10,508 nt of DNA, from positions 1 to 10,508 of the forward strand of contig JANQHR010000104.1 in the NCBI GenBank assembly GCA_028282585.1, read 5' to 3'. The position numbers and the translations under genes are program-made. The number at the start of each line of letters is the position of its first letter. Position 1 is the stretch's first letter. The stretch comes from Bacteroidales bacterium (GTDB taxonomy: Bacteria; Bacteroidota; Bacteroidia; Bacteroidales; UBA12077). The notes beneath the pieces were generated by a model. It was not told where the DNA came from. It worked only from the letters and a program-made list of their open reading frames with translations, and ran no database searches. Below are positions 1-10,508 of the stretch, one piece after another.

Positions 1-439
1 CTCTGTATTACCTGATTATATGATGCCTTCCTATTATAGCATAATAGAATCGATACCATTAACATCTAATGGTAAGGTTAACCGTAAAGCGCTGCCAGAA
101 CCGGAGGTGGTAAATAACCTCGTAAAGAAAGGCTATGTATCTCCTCAAACTGACCTGGAAAAAAAGATTTCTAATATTTGGAAAGAAATTTTACAAACAG
201 AGAAAGTAGGTATCTATGACAATTTTTTTGAAATAGGAGGTGATTCAATAAAAAGTATTCAATTACAAAAAGAATTAGAAAAACATTTTAATATAAATAT
301 CTCAATTCAGACAATATTTAATAATCCACAAATACATCATTTGGTTAACTTTTTTGAACAAAAGGATATAGAAGAAGATCAAATTAATGATAGATCTGAA
401 GGAGTAGCTTTCTTGAGTAATTTGATGAGTAATGAATAG
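1..439 (+). CDS. NRPS, 3' end (partial at window edge): C-terminal adenylation subdomain + peptidyl carrier protein + short C-terminal tail
   Basis: The frame is open from base 2 (SVLPDYMMPS...), so the ATG at 20 in the ORF track is internal. Motifs: LPDYMMP, the A10 catalytic-Lys motif LTSNGKVNRKAL, and the PCP motif DNFFEIGGDSI (Ser codon 245-247). Stop TAG at 437-439. No TE or E domain follows. Confidence 0.95.
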   Translation, partial: SVLPDYMMPSYYSIIESIPLTSNGKVNRKALPEPEVVNNLVKKGYVSPQTDLEKKISNIWKEILQTEKVGIYDNFFEIGGDSIKSIQLQKELEKHFNINISIQTIFNNPQIHHLVNFFEQKDIEEDQINDRSEGVAFLSNLMSNE

Positions 440-530
440 AAAAAATAATAAAGAAATATGCAAATATAAATGGGTAAGAAATAGCTAGTCGGTTTCCAGA
501 AGAAAAAAGATCGGAGAGTTTTGGTTAATT
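359..530 (+). repeat. Diverged direct repeat, copy 1, of the NRPS-tail/PKS-start junction (partner 2263-2448)
   Basis: Shares ATATAGAAGAA, TGATAGATCTGAAGG, GAGTAATTT and AAGAAATATGCAAATATAAATGGGT-AGAAATAGCT with 2263-2448, followed by weaker similarity through the RFPE...FW codons. Ends are approximate. Confidence 0.92.
448..528 (+). pseudogene. Dead remnant of the PKS 5' end (KS N-terminus)
   Basis: Reads ATA-KKYANING-TAA-EIA-SRFPEEK versus MKKYANINGLEIAVIGMAGRFPEAK at 2348. Start ATG>ATA (448-450), Leu TTA>TAA (475-477), 15-nt deletion of VIGMA, and a later 1-nt frameshift. Confidence 0.88.
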
Positions 531-558
531 TTTTTCTGTGATTTGCTCAAACTGTTAA

Positions 559-586
559 TGCAAAAATTATTACTTTTTGCAAAAAG
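559..586. other. Overlapping inverted repeats (hairpin or operator-like)
   Basis: TGCAAAAA-ttattac-TTTTTGCA (559-581) overlaps the perfect 14-bp palindrome CTTTTTGCAAAAAG (573-586). Function unknown. Confidence 0.35.
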
Positions 587-637
587 CTTTGTTTATATTG
601 CTGATCTTTTCAGATTACCTGTCAAACTATGGAGAGG

Positions 638-655
638 TTGAGGATTGTTTCTCAA
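638..655. promoter_or_regulatory. Palindromic operator-like site 1 upstream of lspA
   Basis: TTGAG-gattgttt-CTCAA. Its first 9 bases (TTGAGGATT) recur in the palindrome at 725-743. Confidence 0.35.
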
Positions 656-668
656 GCTACACTTTTAA

Positions 669-697
669 TTGACACATAAAAGAAGTAACAATAAAAT
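669..697 (+). promoter_or_regulatory. Canonical sigma70-like promoter candidate upstream of lspA
   Basis: TTGACA (669-674), 17-bp spacer, TAAAAT (692-697). The AT-rich background raises the chance of a random match. Confidence 0.45.
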
Positions 698-719
698 ATT
701 ATGAAAAACAGTTGACAGA

Positions 720-748
720 AATTATTGAGGATTAAATCTTCAATAATT
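720..748. promoter_or_regulatory. Long inverted repeat (operator site 2 or terminator/attenuator hairpin)
   Basis: AATTATTGAGGATT-A-AATCTTCAATAATT has 14-bp arms with one mismatch (a G.U pair in RNA) and is followed by the T-rich run ATTCTTTTATTT. Confidence 0.5.
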
Positions 749-772
749 ATTCTTTTATTTAAGGCTTTTTTA

Positions 773-780
773 TAGCTTTA
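773..780 (+). promoter_or_regulatory. Possible Bacteroidota -7 promoter element for lspA
   Basis: TAGCTTTA differs from the TAnnTTTG consensus at the last base and lies ~40 nt before the lspA ATG. No clear TTTG -33 element. Confidence 0.3.
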
Positions 781-821
781 CGCGCAATTGTGTTAATATG
801 AAAATTTAACAGAAATTGAAT

Positions 822-1439
822 ATGTCCATGGGAAAAAAAACAATACTAATTATATCGCTCATTCTTATTGCTGATCAGTCACTTAAAATCTGGGTAAAAA
901 CCAGTATGTATCTTGGTGAATCGATACCTGTGATAGGTAATTGGTTTATCATACGTTTTGTTGAAAATGATGGAATGGCCTACGGGATAGATATTCCTGG
1001 CAAATTCGGAAAAATGGCACTCAGTCTTTTTCGGATTATTGCCGTGGGAGCTATTGGCTATTACCTGCATATACTCATTAAGAAAAAAGCTCGAAATGGT
1101 TTGATTATTTGTTTGTCCTTTATATTTGCCGGTGCCATGGGTAATATTTTAGACAGCATGTTCTATGGCTTGATATTTAATGAAAGTTCCTTGACTCAAA
1201 CTGCCGAATTTTTACCGGCAAATGGAGGATATAATTCCTTTCTTCATGGGGACGTAGTCGATATGTTTTATTTTCCAATTTTGGAATACACCTATCCTAA
1301 ATGGTTTCCATTATGGGGAGGCCAAACATCTACTTTCTTTAATGCAATTTTTAATCTGGCCGATTCATTTATTACCATCGGTATAATTTCTATTCTGCTT
1401 TTTAATAGAGAAATTTTAAGGAAAAGTATTGAGGCGTAG
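822..1439 (+). CDS. lspA: Lipoprotein signal peptidase (signal peptidase II, aspartyl peptidase family A8), long Bacteroidota-type form
   Basis: Motifs ADQSLKIWV, ENDGMAYG, GAMGNILDS, HGDVVDM (catalytic Asp 1260-1262) and IFNLADS (catalytic Asp 1362-1364). About four hydrophobic helices. The insertions FYGLIFNES...GGY and YPKWFPLWGG are typical of Bacteroidota LspA. ATG 822 preferred; TTG 816 or ATG 828 are possible. Stop TAG 1437-1439. Confidence 0.96.
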   Translation: MSMGKKTILIISLILIADQSLKIWVKTSMYLGESIPVIGNWFIIRFVENDGMAYGIDIPGKFGKMALSLFRIIAVGAIGYYLHILIKKKARNGLIICLSFIFAGAMGNILDSMFYGLIFNESSLTQTAEFLPANGGYNSFLHGDVVDMFYFPILEYTYPKWFPLWGGQTSTFFNAIFNLADSFITIGIISILLFNREILRKSIEA

Positions 1440-1723
1440 GAAATAAGTATATCCCATTCTACCATAACTTGAGATATTTGAGTTGTTTGTACTTTGCTCA
1501 TTTTATATCTATAAACCATTTTCCGAGGTCATCCTTAGTGATCCAATTTTCATATGTAATGATTGTTTTTTGTTTGCTTTTTATTGTTTCATATTTGTTA
1601 TTTATGAAATGAATATGAGGAATTTGACCATGATATTTTAGAATGGAGACCAATTTAAATACGGTGTCAATTTTATCCAAGATGTCATTACCCTAATCTC
1701 GCCCAAATTCTCTAAACTGGATT

Positions 1724-2248
1724 GTAATTACTATAGTAGGGAAGGTAATTTACCTGGTTAATCACATTTGTTACGAGACTTAAACTAGCTGAATGAGATT
1801 TACCATCACAAATGGAGCCAGGCTATCAGAATACTTTATCATATTTCTTTGAACCTAGAAAAACAAATGAGTGTCTCAGTTTATCATAACTATAATCCTG
1901 GAAGGTATCAAATTGGAAAGCAACTTGATTATTTGATAAACTATAATTTGCACATGAAAAAGTAGAACTAATAAAATTTCAAAATCGATTGAAAAAGTAT
2001 CGTAATTTTATTTTTACTTCTCTAGAGCCATTTGAATTTCCTCCAGATTATAATGCCTCTGAAAGAGCTATCCAAAATGTTAAGGTAAAATAAAAAGTGT
2101 TTGATCAATCCAGAGCAGCCAATGGTGCATTTCGATTTGCTATGTATGGATCAATGACAGATATAATAATCAAAAATGAACAGAAGGATTTAAGTCCTTT
2201 TCAAAATATAGCTAATTTATAAACTGATCTGTAATCCTGATTAATAAT
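1724..2248 (+). mobile_element. Degenerate, internally deleted IS66-family element (TnpC transposase C-terminal pseudogene ~1762-2234)
   Basis: Manual translation gives SHLLRDLN*LNEIYHHKWS... then a frameshift at ~1953, then ELIKFQNRLKKYRNFIFT...PPDYNASERAIQNVKVK*KVF...GAFRFA...IKNEQ. This matches the IS66 TnpC hallmarks AHLLR and PPDNNASERAIRxxKVKQKxSG. In-frame stops at 1786, 2091 and 2220. Possible decayed ends GTAATTACT (1724) and CCTGATTAATAAT (2236-2248). Confidence 0.85.
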
Positions 2249-2262
2249 TTAAAAAATAACCC

Positions 2263-2448
2263 CAAAGAATATAGAAGAATAACAGAATGATGATAGATCT
2301 GAAGGGGGAGTTTTTCGGAGTAATTTAATGAATAGGAGAAAAAAACAATGAAGAAATATGCAAATATAAATGGGTTAGAAATAGCTGTAATAGGTATGGC
2401 TGGTCGTTTCCCTGAAGCAAAAAATATTGAGGAATTTTGGGATAATTT
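2263..2448 (+). repeat. Diverged direct repeat, copy 2, of the NRPS-tail/PKS-start junction (partner 359-530)
   Basis: See copy 1. It begins ~15 bp after the putative IS66 right end and runs into the intact PKS start. Confidence 0.92.
2265..2351 (+). pseudogene. Orphan remnant of the NRPS 3' end
   Basis: Reads KNIEE*QNDDRSEGGVFRSNLMNRRKKQ* versus KDIEEDQINDRSEGVAFLSNLMSNE* in the upstream NRPS. Internal TAA at 2280-2282. Its TGA (2349-2351) overlaps the PKS ATG (ATGA). Confidence 0.85.
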
Positions 2449-5400
2449 AAGGCAAGGAAAAGAATCAATTTCAAGATTTACTAACGAAGAACTGATCGAA
2501 AGTGGTTTCAATAAAGAAATATTAGATAATCCCAAATATGTAAAAGCTAAAGGGTATATAAAAGATATCGAATATTTTGACAATGAATTATTTGGGTATT
2601 CGCCTGTAGAAAGTCAATTAATGGATCCTCAATTTAGATTGTTACAAGAATGTGTGTGGGAGGCTTTAGAAAATGCAGGATATGCAAACAATACTTACAA
2701 TGGTAATGTAGGTATTTATGCTGGAGCAAATTTCAATTTTCAATGGCAGGAAATGCTTAGATCAGTCAAAACGTTTGATTTTTTAAATACTTCATTTTAT
2801 AATTGCAGAGAATATTTAACTACACAATTATCTTATAAACTTAATCTAAAAGGCCCAAGTGTTCCTATTATTACCGCTTGTTCAACATCGTTGGTTGCAG
2901 TTCATATTGCATGCCAGGGATTATATATAAGGGATTGTAATATTGCACTTGCAGGCGGGGTATCAATATCTCTTCCAAAAAAATCAGGATACCTTTACCA
3001 GGATGGAATGATTTATTCTAAAGATGGGCATTGCCGTGCATTTGATGCAGAAGCCAGTGGAACTGTTTTTGGTGATGGAGCTGGAGTGGTTGTTTTAAAA
3101 AGACTTAAAGATGCGTTAAAAGATGGTGATTCAATTTATGCTGTCATAAAAGGTTCTGCAATTAATAATGATGGAAATCGAAAAATGGTCTTCTCAGCCC
3201 CTAGTGTTCTTGGTCAGAAAAAAGTAATTAGTGATGCTTTTGCAATTGCAAATATTAATTTTGAGGATATTGGTTATATTGAAACACATGGAACAGGTAC
3301 TAAAATTGGAGATCCAATTGAAATAGAGGCTTTAACAAAAGCGTTTAATACCCCAAAGAAGAATCTTTGTAAAATAGGATCAGTAAAAACAAATGTGGGT
3401 CACTTAGGTATTGCTTCAGGAATTACTGGTTTTATAAAAACAGTTTTAACATTAAAAAATGGACAAATACCACCAAGTCTGAATTATAAAAAATCTAATG
3501 AAGCAATTAATTTTAAAAAAAGTCCATTTAATGTAAATACTACTCTTTTTCACTGGATAGATAATGATAATTCTAGAAAAGCAGGAGTAAGTTCTTTTGG
3601 AATAGGGGGAACAAATGCCCATGTTGTTCTTGAAGAAGCCCCGGAAACAAGAAAATCAGGTTCTAATCGTAGGAATCAGCTATTGCTTTTTTCAGCCAAA
3701 AGTGAACTATCTCTAAATAAATATATTGATAGCTTCATTCAATTTGCAAAAAACAATACAAACTTAAATATTGCAGATTCGTCATATACTTTAAGTGTTG
3801 GGAGAGAGACCTTTGAATATAAAAAGCACCTAGTATATAATGAGAATGTTGACTTTATTAATAAATTGAATGAACTAAAAGAAGAAAGCATACATAATCA
3901 AATTGTTAAAGAAAGAAAACAAGTTGTATTTATGTTTCCTGGACAGGGAAATCAATATATTAATATGGCAAAGGGGCTTTATGATAATGAACCAATTTTT
4001 AAAGCCTATATCGATAAATGCAATACTCTACTTAAGATTAATACGAATAAGGATATTTTAGAAATTGTATTTGCTGCTGACAATAATTTATCAATCAATC
4101 AAACAAACAATGCTCAAATTGCCCTTTTTATTATTGAATATTCCCTGGCAAGTACATTACTGCAACTTGGAATACAACCTGATGCTATGATTGGCCATAG
4201 TATTGGCGAATATGTAGCAGCATGTTTATCAGGAGTTTTTACACTAGAAGATGCCATTTCATTGGTAAATATTAGAGGAGAAGTGATGTTGTCGGCTCCT
4301 TCGGGTTCAATGTTATCCATAAGAATTTCTGAAAAAAAATTACTGGAAATAATTCCAAATGAAATTGAGATTTCAGTGGTTAATACTCCTGAAGATTTTG
4401 TTGTTTCAGGAACAAAGGACGAAATTCAAAAGTTTAAAGAAGTATTGGATAGTAAAAAAATTCAAAACCATTTATTGCAAACTTCCCATGCATTTCATTC
4501 AAAATTGATGGATTCTGTTTTAACTGATTTTAAAATGAAAATTAGTGATATAAAATTCAATGAACCAAGAATTCCATTTATTTCAAATATTACTGGGAAT
4601 TGGATTACAAGCAATCAGGCAACAGATATTCAATATTGGACTGAACATATCAGAAAGCCAGTACAATTCTCCACAGGATGCTATAAAATCTTTAATATTA
4701 TACCAGATATATTATTAGAGGTAGGGCCTGGAAATAGTTTGCAGTATTTCATTGGTAAACATCCTAATGAAAACAATAAACAAATTGTTATACCATTAAT
4801 TCGTCATCCAAAACAAAATACTGAAGATGATTTTATTTTTATAAAAATAATAGGTGCCTTATGGGAACAAGGAATTGATATAAATTGGGAAAATTATTTT
4901 GCAACTGAAAAAAGAAACAGAATTCCTCTTCCAACTTATGAATTTGATAAAAAACGATTTTGGATTGACTCTCAAAATCAAGAATCATTAACAAATACAT
5001 CCCTTTCAAAGAATAAAAATACTGATGAATGGTTTTATATACCTTCATGGAAAAAGTTTAAACCAATAATTAATACAAAAGCAAGCAAATTTAGTAAATG
5101 GTTAATTTTTAACAATGAAAACGATTTTGGTAACAAACTTACAGAACAACTTGAAGCTCAAAATAAACAGATTGTAAATGTTCTTATTGGTGAACAATTT
5201 AGTAAGAATAAAGATGAATTTGAAATCTCAGCAAGCAATAAAGGAGATTACATAAAACTTTTCAATGATTTCAAAAAGAATGGAAATATACCGGATTGTA
5301 TCGTACATCTCTGGAATTTAGACTATTCTCAATCAGAAGAAAATGTTAATTTAGAGAATCAACTAAATAAAAGTTTCTACAGTTTATTATATCTGGCACA

Positions 5401-7828
5401 AGCCATTCTTGAAAATAATATACAATCTAAAATAAAAATTGCAGTAATATCAAACCAATTGCAGAAGGTTTATCATTCAGATATTGTAATTCCTGAAAAA
5501 GCGACTTTAATTGGTGCTCTGAAAACAATACCCCAAGAAGTGAAGAATATTTCTAGTTGTAGTTTAGATATTTTAGTGCCTTTTGAATTTGAACAGGAAT
5601 TAGTATCTCGATTATTGATAGAAATAGAATATTTAAACGAAGAAAATTATTTTGCTGCTTATCGCGGACTTGATCGTTGGGTTCAAACGTTCGAGCATGT
5701 ATCATTACCCCCAAAGAACAATGTTTTAAATGGCAAACTTAAAACTGATAATGTTTATTTAATTACAGGAGGATTAGGTGGTATAGGGCTTATAATATCT
5801 GATCATTTGGTCAAAACGGTTAAAGCCAAATTAATTATTACTACAAATTCATATTTCCCCGCAAAAGAATCATGGGAGCAGTGGATTTCCACACACGATG
5901 TTCAGGATAGAACAACTCAGCGTATAATTGCATTAAGAAATATGGAAAAGCGAGGAGCTGAAGTTCTTATTCTTAAAGCCGATGTCTCTGATTGTGTACA
6001 AATGAATTATGTTATAACCCAAACAATAGAAAAATATGGAACCATAAATGGTATTATCCATGCAGCAGGAAATCCAGGTATTGGAATGATTCAAAATAAA
6101 ACGAAAGAAACAATTGAAAGAGTTTTAAAACCTAAAATTAAAGGATTGCGAACATTGGAAGCAGTTACTGATGATCTTGATTTGGATTTTATTTTATTGT
6201 TTTCTTCAACAATCAGTATAATTGGAGGTTTTGGTCAAATTGATTATTGTGCAGCAAATGCTTTTATGGATTCTTTCGCTCATAATAGTAGATGGGATAA
6301 TAAAATATTATCAATTAACTGGGATGCATGGGCTGAAGTCGGGATGGCGACAAGAACATACTCCAAACCAGATACATTTATAGAACTCAAAGCTCCTAAG
6401 GAACATAATATAATACATCCTTTGGTTTCAAGCATTCAAAAAACAACCAATGAAGAAGTTGTATATAATCTTACTATATCCCCAAAAGAACAATGGTTTT
6501 TATTGGAACATAAAATTAACGATATTCCAATATTGCCTAATACTGCGTATATATATCTTGCATATGCAACACTATGTAATTATTATAAAGCTGGAGTGCT
6601 TAGAATTAGTGAGTTGAATTGTGTATATCCTTTAATGGTAGGGGATATGCATACAAAAAATGGACAAATCCAAGTAACTAAAGAAAATAACAATTTCAAT
6701 TTTGAAATAAAAAGTATTGTTGGTACCAAAAATAATGGAGAGCCAATATGGCAAATAAATGCAGTAGGAAAAGCGGAAAAATTAGATAAAAAACCTCTTA
6801 AATATAATGTTGATGAGATATGCTCAAAATATCAGCCAGTTGAACTTGACTTTGTTGATAATAAAACAGGAGATAGTGATGATCAAAATTTCAGAACATT
6901 TGGTCAGAGATGGAATTCTATCAAAAGAATTTATAAAGGAGAGGATTTTGTATTAGGTTTAATTGAATTATGTGATGTTAATTGTAAGGATTTTGATAAT
7001 CATCAAGTTAGCTCCGTACTGTTTGATTGTGTATTACTGCTTAGTTCAATATTCTCTAAAGAAAAAGAGGTATTACCAATAATGTTTTACAATATTAATA
7101 TCTTCAAAAAGATTCCAGCTTCCCTGTGGGGGCTGTTAAAGTTGAAAACGTCAGATATTCAGGATGATAAGATAATAGATTTTGAATTAAATCTTATTGA
7201 TAAAGAAGGTAATTGTATTCTAATGGTTGAGTCTTTTATCCTGAAAGAAATTAATACTAATATGAATAATGAGCAACCCAATATCATCAATAATAAGCAA
7301 AAAACGTTGCTCCATGGTCAATCAAATGATAATGGAATCTCAAATATTGAAGGAACCGAAGTATTGGATCGGATATTGGAATATAATATGGGAAATCAAA
7401 TCATTGTATCTACAAGAGCTTTGCCCAATCTTATTGAAGAATATAATTCATTAGATATAACTAAATTATCATATAGTAGTAAAGAGTTAAGTAATACTGT
7501 GAGATTACAAAAAAGACCTCAGCTTTCAACCCAGTATGTGCCTCCAAGTCAGCCAGATGAGTTGATGGTGTTCAAGTTGTGGCAAGAATTACTGGGTATT
7601 GAGAAAATCGGTATAGATGACAATTTCTTTGAGATCGGCGGAAATTCATTAATTGCAACTCAGTTTATATTAAGAATTAATGAAGAATTCAATGTAGAAT
7701 TACCTGTGAAATCAATTTTTGAATATTCAACCATCAATCAATTATCTAAATATATAAATGTTATAAATAAAATAAATCCTGAATCTCATTTAAAATCTAA
7801 TGGTGAGGAGAAAGTATATGAAATCTAG
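2348..7828 (+). CDS. Single-module cis-AT type I polyketide synthase, KS-AT(malonyl)-KR with embedded DH-like domain-ACP, 1826 aa
   Basis: KS triad TACSTS (Cys 2879), HGTGT and KTNVGHL. AT GHSIG (4193) and HAFH (4487, malonyl-CoA fingerprint). KR GGLGGIG (5768), PKIKG, FSS and GQIDYCAAN (Tyr 6245). DH-like HPLV...EHKINDIPILP (His 6509)...LFD (Asp 7025). Carrier motif DNFFEIGGNSL (Ser 7646). Tail EEKVYEI. AGGAG at 2334-2338 upstream. Confidence 0.97.
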   Translation: MKKYANINGLEIAVIGMAGRFPEAKNIEEFWDNLRQGKESISRFTNEELIESGFNKEILDNPKYVKAKGYIKDIEYFDNELFGYSPVESQLMDPQFRLLQECVWEALENAGYANNTYNGNVGIYAGANFNFQWQEMLRSVKTFDFLNTSFYNCREYLTTQLSYKLNLKGPSVPIITACSTSLVAVHIACQGLYIRDCNIALAGGVSISLPKKSGYLYQDGMIYSKDGHCRAFDAEASGTVFGDGAGVVVLKRLKDALKDGDSIYAVIKGSAINNDGNRKMVFSAPSVLGQKKVISDAFAIANINFEDIGYIETHGTGTKIGDPIEIEALTKAFNTPKKNLCKIGSVKTNVGHLGIASGITGFIKTVLTLKNGQIPPSLNYKKSNEAINFKKSPFNVNTTLFHWIDNDNSRKAGVSSFGIGGTNAHVVLEEAPETRKSGSNRRNQLLLFSAKSELSLNKYIDSFIQFAKNNTNLNIADSSYTLSVGRETFEYKKHLVYNENVDFINKLNELKEESIHNQIVKERKQVVFMFPGQGNQYINMAKGLYDNEPIFKAYIDKCNTLLKINTNKDILEIVFAADNNLSINQTNNAQIALFIIEYSLASTLLQLGIQPDAMIGHSIGEYVAACLSGVFTLEDAISLVNIRGEVMLSAPSGSMLSIRISEKKLLEIIPNEIEISVVNTPEDFVVSGTKDEIQKFKEVLDSKKIQNHLLQTSHAFHSKLMDSVLTDFKMKISDIKFNEPRIPFISNITGNWITSNQATDIQYWTEHIRKPVQFSTGCYKIFNIIPDILLEVGPGNSLQYFIGKHPNENNKQIVIPLIRHPKQNTEDDFIFIKIIGALWEQGIDINWENYFATEKRNRIPLPTYEFDKKRFWIDSQNQESLTNTSLSKNKNTDEWFYIPSWKKFKPIINTKASKFSKWLIFNNENDFGNKLTEQLEAQNKQIVNVLIGEQFSKNKDEFEISASNKGDYIKLFNDFKKNGNIPDCIVHLWNLDYSQSEENVNLENQLNKSFYSLLYLAQAILENNIQSKIKIAVISNQLQKVYHSDIVIPEKATLIGALKTIPQEVKNISSCSLDILVPFEFEQELVSRLLIEIEYLNEENYFAAYRGLDRWVQTFEHVSLPPKNNVLNGKLKTDNVYLITGGLGGIGLIISDHLVKTVKAKLIITTNSYFPAKESWEQWISTHDVQDRTTQRIIALRNMEKRGAEVLILKADVSDCVQMNYVITQTIEKYGTINGIIHAAGNPGIGMIQNKTKETIERVLKPKIKGLRTLEAVTDDLDLDFILLFSSTISIIGGFGQIDYCAANAFMDSFAHNSRWDNKILSINWDAWAEVGMATRTYSKPDTFIELKAPKEHNIIHPLVSSIQKTTNEEVVYNLTISPKEQWFLLEHKINDIPILPNTAYIYLAYATLCNYYKAGVLRISELNCVYPLMVGDMHTKNGQIQVTKENNNFNFEIKSIVGTKNNGEPIWQINAVGKAEKLDKKPLKYNVDEICSKYQPVELDFVDNKTGDSDDQNFRTFGQRWNSIKRIYKGEDFVLGLIELCDVNCKDFDNHQVSSVLFDCVLLLSSIFSKEKEVLPIMFYNINIFKKIPASLWGLLKLKTSDIQDDKIIDFELNLIDKEGNCILMVESFILKEINTNMNNEQPNIINNKQKTLLHGQSNDNGISNIEGTEVLDRILEYNMGNQIIVSTRALPNLIEEYNSLDITKLSYSSKELSNTVRLQKRPQLSTQYVPPSQPDELMVFKLWQELLGIEKIGIDDNFFEIGGNSLIATQFILRINEEFNVELPVKSIFEYSTINQLSKYINVINKINPESHLKSNGEEKVYEI

Positions 7829-10508
7829 ATTTGAATTAATTGAATATTTAGCTCAGCTGGTAGAACTTGGTATCGAAATTAAAGTTGATCAGCAAAAAGT
7901 GGTAATAAGTGATAGAAATAATAATATTACAGATAAAATACTTGAAGACTTAAAAAGATATAAAAATGAAATAATTGGTCTTAGCTTCGACAAAAGGAAA
8001 AAAGACATTAGTGAAATAAAATTGGTTGATAAAACTATTGACCTTCCTCTGTCTTGTGCCCAGGAAAGGCTATGGTTTTTAGATCAGTACGAGCATAATG
8101 GTGCTTATAATTTACCTGTAGCTATACGTATAAAGGGTAAACTTGATTTATCAATATTAGAAAAAGTATTTAACGAGATCGTATGTCGACATGAATCATT
8201 ACGTACAAATTTTGTTCAAATAAATGATGTGCCTAGGCAAATCATTCATAAAGAACCAAATTATAAAATTGAAACTGTAGATCTTACCAAGATGTCATTA
8301 TATAAGGCTGAACAAAAATTAAAAGGTCTTATAATTGAAGACTCTCAATTGCTCTTTGATTTAGCTAATGATAGTTTGATTAGATTCAAGATGTACGTAT
8401 TATCAGAAGAATATTTTGTATTATTTATAAATCAGCATCACATTATAACTGATTTATGGTCATATAATATTTTGATAAAAGAAATAGGTGTACTATATGA
8501 ATCATTTACAAAAGGCGAACCTTCACCATTAAGAGATTTGTCCATTCAATATGGTGATTTCTCAGTTTGGCAAAAAGAATATTTAGAAAATAAAGTAACA
8601 AAGAAGCAATTAGATTATTGGAAAAATAAACTTACGGGCACCTCAGTGTTAGTATTGCCAACAGATAGGCAACGTTCGGAAGTTCAGACGTTTAATGGGA
8701 GTAGGAAATCTTTTAAGATAAATAAAGATGTAACAAATAAATTAAATGAATTATGTATTAAATACGATGTAACTTTCTTTATGATGTTGCTATCGTTGTT
8801 TAAAGTATTATTGAATAAATACTCAGGCCAAGATGATATTTGTGTTGGTAGTCCTATAGCCAACAGAACAAGGCGTGAATTAGAAGATTTAATTGGTTTT
8901 TTTGTTAATACACTAGTTCTCAGAAGCAAAATTGATATAGAGGGCACTTTTATTGATTTACTAAATAATGTTAAAGTAAATACACTTGAGGCTTATAACA
9001 ATCAGGATATTCCTTTTGAAAAAATATTAAGTGCGGTTAATTCTGAACGGGACTTGTCATTTTCGCCACTATTCCAGGTTATGATGGTTTTGCAAAACAT
9101 TTCTCATAATAATCAAATGATATCATCAGATATAAAATTGGAAAACATGGCATTTGAACATGTAGTCTCTAAATATGATTTAACTTTTGAGTTTACAGAG
9201 TCATCAGATGGTCTTATTTGCGTTATAGAATATAATACAGATTTGTTCAATCAAAGTACAATAGATAGGATGGTAGGGCATTTCAATGTTCTAGTGGAAT
9301 CAATTATATCTAATCCTACTGCTACTATTTCTGGATTAGAAGTCTTAACACCTGCGGAGAAACATAAATTATTGGTAGAATGGAACGATACTGATGCCGA
9401 TTACCCCAAGGATAAATGTATCCATCAGTTGTTTGAGCAGCAGGTAGAAAAAACACCCGATAGCATAGCTGTAGTTTTTGAGGGCCGGCAATTAACATAC
9501 AGGGAATTAAATGACAAATCTAACCAGTTAGGACATTATTTACAAACTAGAGGGGTTAAGCCGGATTCTTTGGTAGGGATTTGTGTAGACCGATCACTTG
9601 ATATGATAATTGGCATGCTCGGGATATTAAAGGCCGGTGGGGCATATGTGCCAATAGATCCATCTTATCCAAATGACAGAATATCATTTATGCTTGATAA
9701 TAGCGAATGCTCTATACTTCTGACCCAAGAATTATTCAAGTCAACATTTCTTAATGAGAAAAATATAGAGGTTGTTTACCTTGATGAAGAGAGTGTTGAT
9801 TCGGAAATAGAAAAAGAATCTAAGAGTACTGTCATTTCAAATGTTCGATCGAATAATCTGGCCTATGTAATTTACACTTCGGGTTCAACAGGCCAGCCCA
9901 AAGGGACACTAATAGAGCATAAGAATGTTGTACGGTTATTATTCAACGATAAATTCCAATTTGATTTTTCAGAAAAGGATGTTTGGACCTTATTTCATTC
10001 TTATTGTTTTGATTTTTCTGTATGGGAAATGTATGGAGCATTATTGTTTGGTGGCAAGTTAGTCATAGTCGCCAAAGACACAGCAGTAGATACTGAACAA
10101 TTTTGTCAGTTATTAGAAAACCATAAAGTAACAGTACTCAACCAAACGCCTTCAGCATTTTATACTTTATCTGAAGAAGCAGGAGGAAAAAATGCTGCTC
10201 TTTCGATACGCTATGTAATTTTTGGGGGTGAAGCTTTGGCTCCTTTCAGGTTAAGGTTTTGGTATGATAATTACCCAGCTTGCAAATTGATAAACATGTA
10301 TGGAATAACAGAGACCACCGTGCATGTAACCTATAAAGAAATAACTGAATTAGAAATCAGGAGTAATATTTGCAATATTGGTAAGCCAATCCCTACATTA
10401 TCCACCTACATATTAGATGAAAATAAAAATCTTCTGCCCATAGGAGTCTCAGGCGAGCTTTGTGTTTCAGGAGATGGACTTGCCCGGGGATATCTAAATA
10501 GCCCTGAG
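7818..10508 (+). CDS. NRPS, 5' part (partial at window edge): N-terminal docking domain - C (LCL-like) - A (threonine-specific code)
   Basis: ATG at 7818 follows GAGGAG (7805-7810) and overlaps the PKS end by 11 nt. I found no in-frame stop. C-domain motifs LSCAQERLWFL, RHESLRT, HHIITDLWS (8436), IGFFVNTLVLR and NQDIPFE. A-domain motifs YTSGSTGQPKG (9873), FDFSVWE, LNQTP, IFGGE, NMYGITETTVH and GELCVSGDGLARGY. The first nine Stachelhaus residues, DFWNIGMVH, are the Thr code. Confidence 0.96.
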   Translation, partial: MKSRFELIEYLAQLVELGIEIKVDQQKVVISDRNNNITDKILEDLKRYKNEIIGLSFDKRKKDISEIKLVDKTIDLPLSCAQERLWFLDQYEHNGAYNLPVAIRIKGKLDLSILEKVFNEIVCRHESLRTNFVQINDVPRQIIHKEPNYKIETVDLTKMSLYKAEQKLKGLIIEDSQLLFDLANDSLIRFKMYVLSEEYFVLFINQHHIITDLWSYNILIKEIGVLYESFTKGEPSPLRDLSIQYGDFSVWQKEYLENKVTKKQLDYWKNKLTGTSVLVLPTDRQRSEVQTFNGSRKSFKINKDVTNKLNELCIKYDVTFFMMLLSLFKVLLNKYSGQDDICVGSPIANRTRRELEDLIGFFVNTLVLRSKIDIEGTFIDLLNNVKVNTLEAYNNQDIPFEKILSAVNSERDLSFSPLFQVMMVLQNISHNNQMISSDIKLENMAFEHVVSKYDLTFEFTESSDGLICVIEYNTDLFNQSTIDRMVGHFNVLVESIISNPTATISGLEVLTPAEKHKLLVEWNDTDADYPKDKCIHQLFEQQVEKTPDSIAVVFEGRQLTYRELNDKSNQLGHYLQTRGVKPDSLVGICVDRSLDMIIGMLGILKAGGAYVPIDPSYPNDRISFMLDNSECSILLTQELFKSTFLNEKNIEVVYLDEESVDSEIEKESKSTVISNVRSNNLAYVIYTSGSTGQPKGTLIEHKNVVRLLFNDKFQFDFSEKDVWTLFHSYCFDFSVWEMYGALLFGGKLVIVAKDTAVDTEQFCQLLENHKVTVLNQTPSAFYTLSEEAGGKNAALSIRYVIFGGEALAPFRLRFWYDNYPACKLINMYGITETTVHVTYKEITELEIRSNICNIGKPIPTLSTYILDENKNLLPIGVSGELCVSGDGLARGYLNSPE

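Follow-up and report, generated by a model that had tools for sequence, protein, structure and literature searches.

A second lspA gene between reciprocally decayed copies of a synthetase gene junction in a Bacteroidales genome

The locus and its duplicated junction

The window analysed here is a whole contig (JANQHR010000104.1, hereafter C97; 10,508 bp) of a 4.89-Mb Bacteroidales genome from a coral metagenome. It holds part of a biosynthetic cluster in which an intact second copy of lspA, the gene of signal peptidase II, lies between a non-ribosomal peptide synthetase (NRPS) gene and a polyketide synthase (PKS) gene of the same strand. The junction of these two genes is present twice, each copy being dead in the half that the other keeps alive. 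All genes and remnants of the window are on its forward strand. The left junction copy (359–532), delimited by alignment like its counterpart, comprises the live tail of the upstream NRPS (359–439) and a dead PKS head (448–532). It is followed by the decayed 3' end of a dksA/TraR zinc-finger gene (538–697), an AT-rich, terminator-like hairpin succeeded by a T tract (720–760), a weak candidate for a Bacteroidota −7 promoter element of lspA (773–781), lspA itself (822–1439), an AT-rich spacer for which sequence searches gave no convincing match (1440–1761) and a decayed IS66 transposase remnant (1762–2237). The right copy (2262–2449) then joins a dead NRPS tail to the live head of the PKS, which starts with the ATG at 2348.

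The first-pass annotation, made from the DNA letters alone, had proposed that some 170–185 bp around the NRPS stop and the PKS start occur twice, and the pairwise alignment that it suggested for 359–530 and 2263–2448 confirms the duplication. In a global alignment of 359–532 with 2262–2449, 140 of 167 aligned columns are identical (84%), with five gap events. The local alignment scores 189, against a mean of 52 and a maximum of 78 in 300 shuffles, and the blastn core of the repeat (361–486/2264–2386) has 82.5% identity at an E value of 2e-29. The distance of ∼1.73 kb given earlier is correct as the length of the stretch between the copies (533–2261, 1,729 bp) and wrong as their spacing, which is 1,903 bp from start to start. 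No third copy of the junction was found among the 173 contigs of the genome.

All the lesions previously listed are present in the alignment. In the left copy the PKS head has lost its start codon (ATG to ATA at 448–450), has acquired a stop (TTA to TAA at 475–477) and carries a 15-nt deletion after 484 and single-base deletions near 503 and 523. In the right copy a TAA at 2280–2282 interrupts the NRPS frame. Such reciprocal decay is expected of any duplicated junction, each copy being needed for one half alone, and does not point to a mechanism. Identity is highest in the middle of the repeat, with a 25-bp exact match at 451/2351 and 94% over 440–486, and falls to ∼70–80% at the outer ends. 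By eye, the right copy probably extends left to ∼2238, against the right end of the IS66 remnant.

The last NRPS codons of the two copies are unlike. In the right copy the frame ends in a stretch of basic residues, and its stop shares bases with the PKS start (ATGA, 2335–2351); in the left copy the NRPS stop falls 8 nt before the dead PKS start (431–450). As the final codons differ, the left copy need not carry the ancestral NRPS end: changes to the live docking tail may postdate the duplication.

An assembly artefact or chimera would account for a doubled junction, and the setting invites the suspicion: C97 is a short-read contig of a metagenome-assembled genome with 3.9% contamination, and both its ends lie in collapsed repeats. 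Nevertheless, record 3 of the Logan assembly of run X1, an independent assembly of the same sample from what is probably the source run of the window, covers 70–9297 with 0 differences and 0 gaps. This record is unbranched, and its depth of 17.6 is even across both junctions, where a coverage check had been advised. Among the X1 joints listed, none skips the insert; in runs X2 and X3 the locus is absent. Because one record spans the region without a difference and no listed joint bypasses the insert, misassembly is very unlikely. The copies, moreover, differ by 16% plus indels, and the tetranucleotide distance of C97 stands at the 82nd percentile of windows of the genome, so that the chance left to an artefact is close to nil. 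Towards the contig ends the depth rises to 81–154 (9268–9608) and 63 (1–72). These peaks would correspond to near-identical module segments in roughly 5–9 and 3–4 copies, respectively. Given the raised depth, most of the cluster is likely to be collapsed or unassembled, with contigs C25, C31 and C148 as likely pieces of it.

Origin of the insert

The DNA between the junction copies points to a housekeeping source. A profile of 97 intact dksA genes has a single significant nhmmer match in the window, at 627–684 (E 3.7e-4). Aligned with the end of an intact dksA, 538–697 shows 68% DNA identity and a score of 80.5, compared with a mean of 40 and a maximum of 65.5 in 100 shuffles; the part 5' of 626 is borderline alone, as 1 of 100 shuffles reached its score. 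The remnant begins ∼5 bp after the end of the left copy and contains frameshifts, deletions and a stop. Among 123 lspA loci examined (three sets of 29, 14 and 80, with flanks up to 1.5 or 6 kb), a dksA open reading frame is present at 97, and NRPS or PKS matches are found at none.

The spacer is of the same kind. The hairpin at 720–760 folds with −11.8 kcal/mol, against a median of −16.1 in 58 housekeeping dksA–lspA spacers, and its layout is that of the housekeeping loci L088, L090 and L094. It was not called by a G+C terminator scan, and a combined sigma-70 and terminator scan stayed at chance level. A relaxed −7 motif occurs in 19 of the 58 housekeeping spacers, whereas shuffles gave a mean of 2.7 and a maximum of 7; the candidate at 773–781 has two mismatches to the revised consensus (PMC6847099). 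Transcription coming through from the NRPS may be stopped at the captured hairpin and begin anew at the promoter-like element, so that the lspA promoter would drive the PKS and the genes after it. Since 538–697 is made up of a dksA remnant with a housekeeping-like spacer behind it, comparison with intact loci shows that lspA was brought in on a fragment of a housekeeping ileS-dksA-lspA operon.

The host keeps its own lspA in an ileS-dksA-lspA operon on contig C161, and the product is 52% identical to that of the window gene. In the tree, the C161 gene nests in a genus clade (support 100/99) that excludes the window gene, which groups instead with 10 other rows (96/88); its loop signature is one that 16 of 161 rows possess. 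The closest LspA relatives are 64–65% identical. As a match to the dksA remnant, the dksA of the host ranks only 48th of 98, and the G+C content at third codon positions (GC3) is 0.32 in the window lspA as opposed to 0.19–0.26 in cluster and host genes. Tree placement, dksA rank and GC3 together indicate that the window gene is not a recent copy of the host gene, and they support an origin of the insert in another Bacteroidales lineage. One result weighs against this: an approximately unbiased (AU) test keeps a tree in which the window lspA is sister to the genus (p-AU 0.132).

Genomes with two lspA matches are uncommon. This genome is the only one among 41 compared, and 18 of 400 other genomes of the order have two. 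When these 18 were re-searched (30 of the 36 matches fetched, 10 of those loci read in detail), most proved to hold complementary halves of one gene. There were also one duplicated contig, one bin (6% contamination) that held two housekeeping operons, three short-type copies and a single long copy standing alone. The stand-alone gene (L064, G162:C2:1021474-1025040) is a long-branch, long-type second lspA in another Bacteroidales genome, with neither ileS-dksA nor NRPS neighbours.

Selection on the captured LspA

The window gene belongs to the Bacteroidota long type (PRK14788); its ATG at 822 fits homologues, and a TTG at 816 is in frame. Its product matches PF01252 with 111 bits (cut-off 25) and NF011369 with 264.6 (cut-off 200) and keeps both catalytic aspartates (D149 and D183). 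Of the 14 conserved LspA residues listed in the parts consulted of PMC6952399, 13 are present; the remaining position (Arg110) is Ser, as in 157 of 160 relatives. A structural model has a pLDDT of 69, and all five Foldseek matches at E≤0.001 are LspA structures. By profile, residue and model evidence the protein is thus a predicted signal peptidase II (LspA, peptidase A8).

That lspA stayed intact amid decay had been taken earlier as a sign of selection, with the ratio of non-synonymous to synonymous substitution rates (dN/dS) as the measure. As the best LspA relatives are only 64–65% identical and dS is saturated, dN/dS on close orthologues was replaced by a simulation calibrated on dksA. Against five near loci, the proportions of non-synonymous (pN) and synonymous (pS) differences of the window lspA are 0.22–0.27 and 0.72–0.84. 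Since the truncated dksA and lspA arrived together, the remnant serves as a neutral clock: the best-kept 17 codons of its motif carry 7 replacement changes in 38 sites (0.18; confidence interval 0.08–0.34). At such rates LspA would be expected to lose 11–25 of the 68 columns that are conserved in at least 90% of 160 relatives. It differs at three. Three losses or fewer have a probability of 0.002 at the low bound of the rate and were seen in 0 of 4000 runs at the estimate. The dksA piece decayed while LspA kept 65 of 68 conserved columns, and this contrast demonstrates, on sequence evidence, purifying selection after capture (P about 0.002 or less), in agreement with the earlier suggestion. 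The co-captured fragment thereby reveals selection on an extra gene copy without recourse to orthologues.

Three substitutions (F56Y, R176N and P177A) were considered as resistance changes and rejected. They are absent from the 160 close relatives and by alignment lie near the inhibitor site; Y56 aligns to Trp57 of the Staphylococcus aureus enzyme, which clamps globomycin according to the parts consulted of PMC6952399. Distant representatives, however, carry the same residues: 14 of 145 have Tyr at 56, and in 13 of 122 the FN motif is preceded by Ala. The substitutions therefore give no ground for calling the enzyme resistant, and this counts against the cluster reading given below.

A second reciprocal junction

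A genome-wide scan of 200 same-contig repeats returned 10 at gene ends and four reciprocal candidates, two of which are the junctions on C97 and C25. The other two, on C33 and C55, were discarded as dispersed non-coding repeats with three and five copies. These repeats (C33 5192–5413/7834–8055, C55 810–941/8419–8550) bracket small genes and look attC-like by eye.

On C25 (locus L074) the copies lie at 10–183 and 1970–2142, with 79% identity over 175 bp and a spacing of 1,960 bp. The layout parallels that of C97: a live epimerase tail with a dead head, an intact radical SAM gene of the TIGR01210 family (RaSEA-like; 436–1539; best relative 56%), and a dead tail with a live head. From the dead head the sequence passes abruptly into an internal C-domain segment (amino acids 273–297); this head once reached codon ∼293, and the dead epimerase tail reaches at least ∼540 bp back. 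Given this reach, the C25 duplicates are judged from their sequence to have begun long and to have been eroded; one of the stretches compared between them has 3 synonymous and 10 replacement changes. The length of 170–185 bp, which the first-pass annotation took for that of the repeat, is therefore not established as the original one. Since C97 has no deeper PKS remnant after its left head, the longer original duplicate is read from C25 only.

From C97 position 9330 onward, C31 is 98% and C25 87% identical; C148 is 76–82% identical to C31 and C25, and these last two have a stretch of 99 identical bases in common and are 78% identical over 1.5 kb. C25, C31 and C148 thus probably belong to the C97 cluster. 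It counts against the argument drawn from C25 that the cluster is in pieces and that the only link between C25 and C97 is their sequence similarity. No dead copies of cluster genes were found in ∼454 kb of other NRPS/PKS DNA (19 loci in four genus genomes, together with C124 and C126), a comparison that lends no support to duplicated junctions as a general pattern beyond the C97/C25 cluster.

C124 of this genome and genome G046 (L032, L036, L169 and L170) hold a second large NRPS/PKS cluster that is nearly identical between the two genomes. It includes a TIGR01210-like gene, 30% identical to that of C25, with no duplicated junctions. Genome G016 has intergenic repeats of 50–220 bp in or near its clusters, unrelated to coding junctions (L190 8492–8559/11296–11362 and 15935–16257; L193 16582–16722; L195 15942–17211).

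The IS66 remnant

The stretch 1762–2228 corresponds to the 3' third of an IS66 transposase, whose 5' two thirds are missing. The PF03050 match is below cut-off (E 8e-4), and the remnant shows 44–49% amino acid identity to intact IS66 genes of the genus (E 3.5e-33). Its right end abuts the right junction copy. This contact speaks for a different account, in which IS66 brought lspA or caused the duplication and lspA is a mobile-element passenger unlinked to the product of the cluster. Extra lspA genes outside clusters do exist, for instance in Acinetobacter, as reported in the portion seen of PMC9499571, and as short-type copies in three of the inspected genomes of the order.

The lesion counts argue otherwise. 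The remnant has accumulated four lesions (one frameshift and three stops) in 467 bp. The remaining dead pieces, 339 bp in all, have 9–12 by a count from the alignments (Poisson P 0.006–0.0003). Because it bears fewer lesions per base, IS66 most likely hopped into DNA that was already dead, later than the repeat; the same age for both, as the first reading had it, could not be established. The target-site duplication of IS66 is 8 bp long. Here the repeat exceeds 170 bp, and no 8-mer following the right end recurs in 531–1800. The remnant is the only IS66 match in the genome, C25 has none, and a passenger gene would leave purifying selection beside a decaying dksA unexplained. Only a slim chance is left to the IS66 account.

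How the insert came to lie there

The duplication, the foreign housekeeping origin of the insert and the selection on LspA stand as results; the order of events and the route are a reconstruction, to which a probability of roughly 55% is given. The NRPS and PKS genes would once have abutted. A segment across their junction would have been duplicated in tandem, leaving a whole NRPS, a whole PKS and, between them, a redundant stretch from PKS head to NRPS tail. Such a stretch would offer a neutral slot where DNA could enter without harm to either gene. Into it would have come the fragment of the ileS-dksA-lspA operon, running from inside dksA to beyond lspA, at about the same time as the duplication, to judge from similar decay. 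Deletions and point mutations would then have eroded the PKS head, the dksA piece and the NRPS tail, while selection retained LspA; IS66 would have inserted later into the dead tail and been truncated itself. As NRPS–PKS junctions of this kind abut or overlap (KS starts overlap or nearly touch the upstream stop in two of six relatives shown), an insert would persist most readily at a doubled junction.

Several observations tell against this reconstruction or leave it less constrained. Homologous clusters were compared for the uninterrupted junction that had been expected, and no orthologous cluster was found: the best PKS match in 5.8 billion proteins is 45% identical, and in 36 other genomes of the genus 49% at best, over part of the protein. 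A search with the NRPS tail gave three loci at 42–43%, and the best match of the downstream NRPS is 48%. Because neither an orthologous cluster nor an empty site was found, the ancestral junction is a reconstruction. The dksA piece (0.18) is perhaps more decayed than the junction copies (pN 0.14–0.17, pS 0.42–0.43), on small counts; this would make the capture an earlier event. Of the 30 coding differences between the copies, 11 are synonymous and 19 are replacements. Depending on how much constraint is assumed, this fits copies that died at once or copies that lived on for a time as paralogues.

Survival as live paralogues is what a lost unit, the alternative named in the first-pass annotation, would imply: an extra working PKS-NRPS block, replaced or interrupted by the dksA–lspA fragment, of which only the ends are left. 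A cluster of repeated modules, as seen in the likeness of C25 and C31 and in the depth at 9268–9608, is a natural setting for it. The live paralogues on C25 and C31 (pS 0.46, pN 0.14) are about as diverged as the C97 copies, and the dead head and dead tail of C25 could be the two ends of one C-A-T-E gene. Yet the genome holds no second PKS close to that of C97 (next best 37%), long joint survival under strong constraint (omega 0.1) is rejected (P 0.0005), and in the first 12 codons of the dead head only the two killing changes differ. The lost unit is unlikely on this balance, though of some weight.

A one-step, Campbell-type single crossover is decidedly unlikely. A circle carrying a diverged junction joined to the truncated dksA and lspA would have recombined in the best-matched stretch, leaving direct repeats on either side of a foreign insert and hybrid copies with an identity peak in mid-repeat and lower outer ends, all as observed. 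However, the donor circle must already have joined junction and insert, no integrase or plasmid gene is present in the insert, and C25 indicates that erosion sets the residue length. Of the earlier claim that lspA entered by duplication or a single crossover, the duplicated junction and the foreign insert hold, and a single event for both is not established.

Returning to tandem duplication followed by capture, its elements have parallels. Prophages and islands that enter tRNA or coding genes bring along a duplicate with which the interrupted gene is rebuilt, and random loss after tandem duplication is familiar. As in target-rebuilding insertions, a foreign insert lies here between copies of its site, each gene is rebuilt from one half and the redundant halves decay. 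They differ from C97, where integrase and att core are both lacking, where the doubled site is the protein-docking junction of two assembly-line genes, and where what was carried in is part of a housekeeping operon. The duplicated junction as such is an expected by-product; its value lies in recording, twice in this cluster, how a gene entered abutting NRPS/PKS operons. If the reconstruction is correct, duplication of a subunit junction and parking of a gene in the dead copy may recur in tightly coupled assembly lines.

A possible self-resistance gene

An extra lspA, in addition to the housekeeping copy on C161, between an NRPS and a PKS gene of the same strand recalls producers of LspA inhibitors. 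Myxovirescin is mainly a polyketide macrolactam, made by trans-AT modules. Its cluster has two lspA copies; here there is one, and a single cis-AT module stands among many NRPS modules. In the parts consulted of PMC9943842 (2023), globF, the lspA of the globomycin cluster, and lspA3 and lspA4 of the myxovirescin cluster are proposed as resistance or regulatory genes, and the two products are the only natural LspA inhibitors known at that date. Because lspA copies sit in both these clusters, the analogy suggests that the product of the C97 cluster inhibits signal peptidase II and that the co-located copy protects the producer by dosage, for which the odds are about even. Like a cluster-embedded target copy, the gene is additional to a housekeeping lspA and lies inside the cluster, and protection may be what this means.

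The likeness to globF of Streptomyces sp. CA-278952 includes a second lspA in a hybrid PKS-NRPS cluster with the housekeeping copy elsewhere and, as far as the account in PMC9943842 was available, conserved active-site residues that are essentially unchanged; resistance is a proposed role there also. C97 differs in phylum and LspA subfamily, and its PKS module comes after an NRPS module and builds no starter chain. The capture scar (dksA remnant and duplicated junction) does not feature in the portion seen of that account. C-domain paralogues here follow epimerase tails, and the assembled pieces contain no N-methyltransferase or Ser module. With lspA3/lspA4 of the myxovirescin (TA) cluster of Myxococcus xanthus the window shares an extra lspA in an NRPS/PKS cluster; inhibition of LspA by the product is described there (PMC9943842, seen in part) and would be expected here. 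A 1.5–2-fold increase in LspA gives resistance in Escherichia coli, according to the excerpt consulted of PMC7482066. Against self-resistance stand the report, in the portion seen of PMC9499571, that an extra lspA had no great effect on resistance frequency in Acinetobacter, and the fragmented state of the cluster.

Target-directed mining normally relies on co-location alone. As a third cluster with lspA, found in a different phylum and sharing no sequence relationship with the other two, the C97 cluster is a concrete lead for the antibiotic target LspA. A tentative proposal, with the odds somewhat against it, is that its product belongs to a third class of natural signal peptidase II inhibitors, which would be the first known in Bacteroidota, and that junction duplication is a recurring route of gene entry that also brought in the radical SAM gene. 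The literature searched, which mostly did not extend to subscription journals, yielded no account of either a Bacteroidota cluster with lspA or a junction scar of this type. Were the drifted DH domain of the PKS inactive, a malonate-extended, ketoreduced amino acid could imitate the aspartyl-protease transition state in the manner of statine, an idea that is speculative because the His and Asp of the domain are present.

Neighbouring genes

The upstream NRPS gene (1–439) runs off the contig and encodes the end of an A domain, a PCP (PF00550 at amino acids 55–117, with NCBIfam NRPS matches) and the C-terminal docking tail. The PKS (2348–7828; 1826 amino acids) is an intact single module, KS-AT-KR-DH-ACP by Pfam and catalytic motifs. 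In its DH domain, which lies after KR (∼6400–7250, amino acids 1357–1635), the motifs neighbouring the His and Asp have drifted relative to homologues on C124 and in G006. The downstream NRPS (7800–10508), recognized by domain matches, comprises a docking domain, a C domain and an A domain before it runs off the contig; read by eye, its A pocket is of what we take to be the Thr type.

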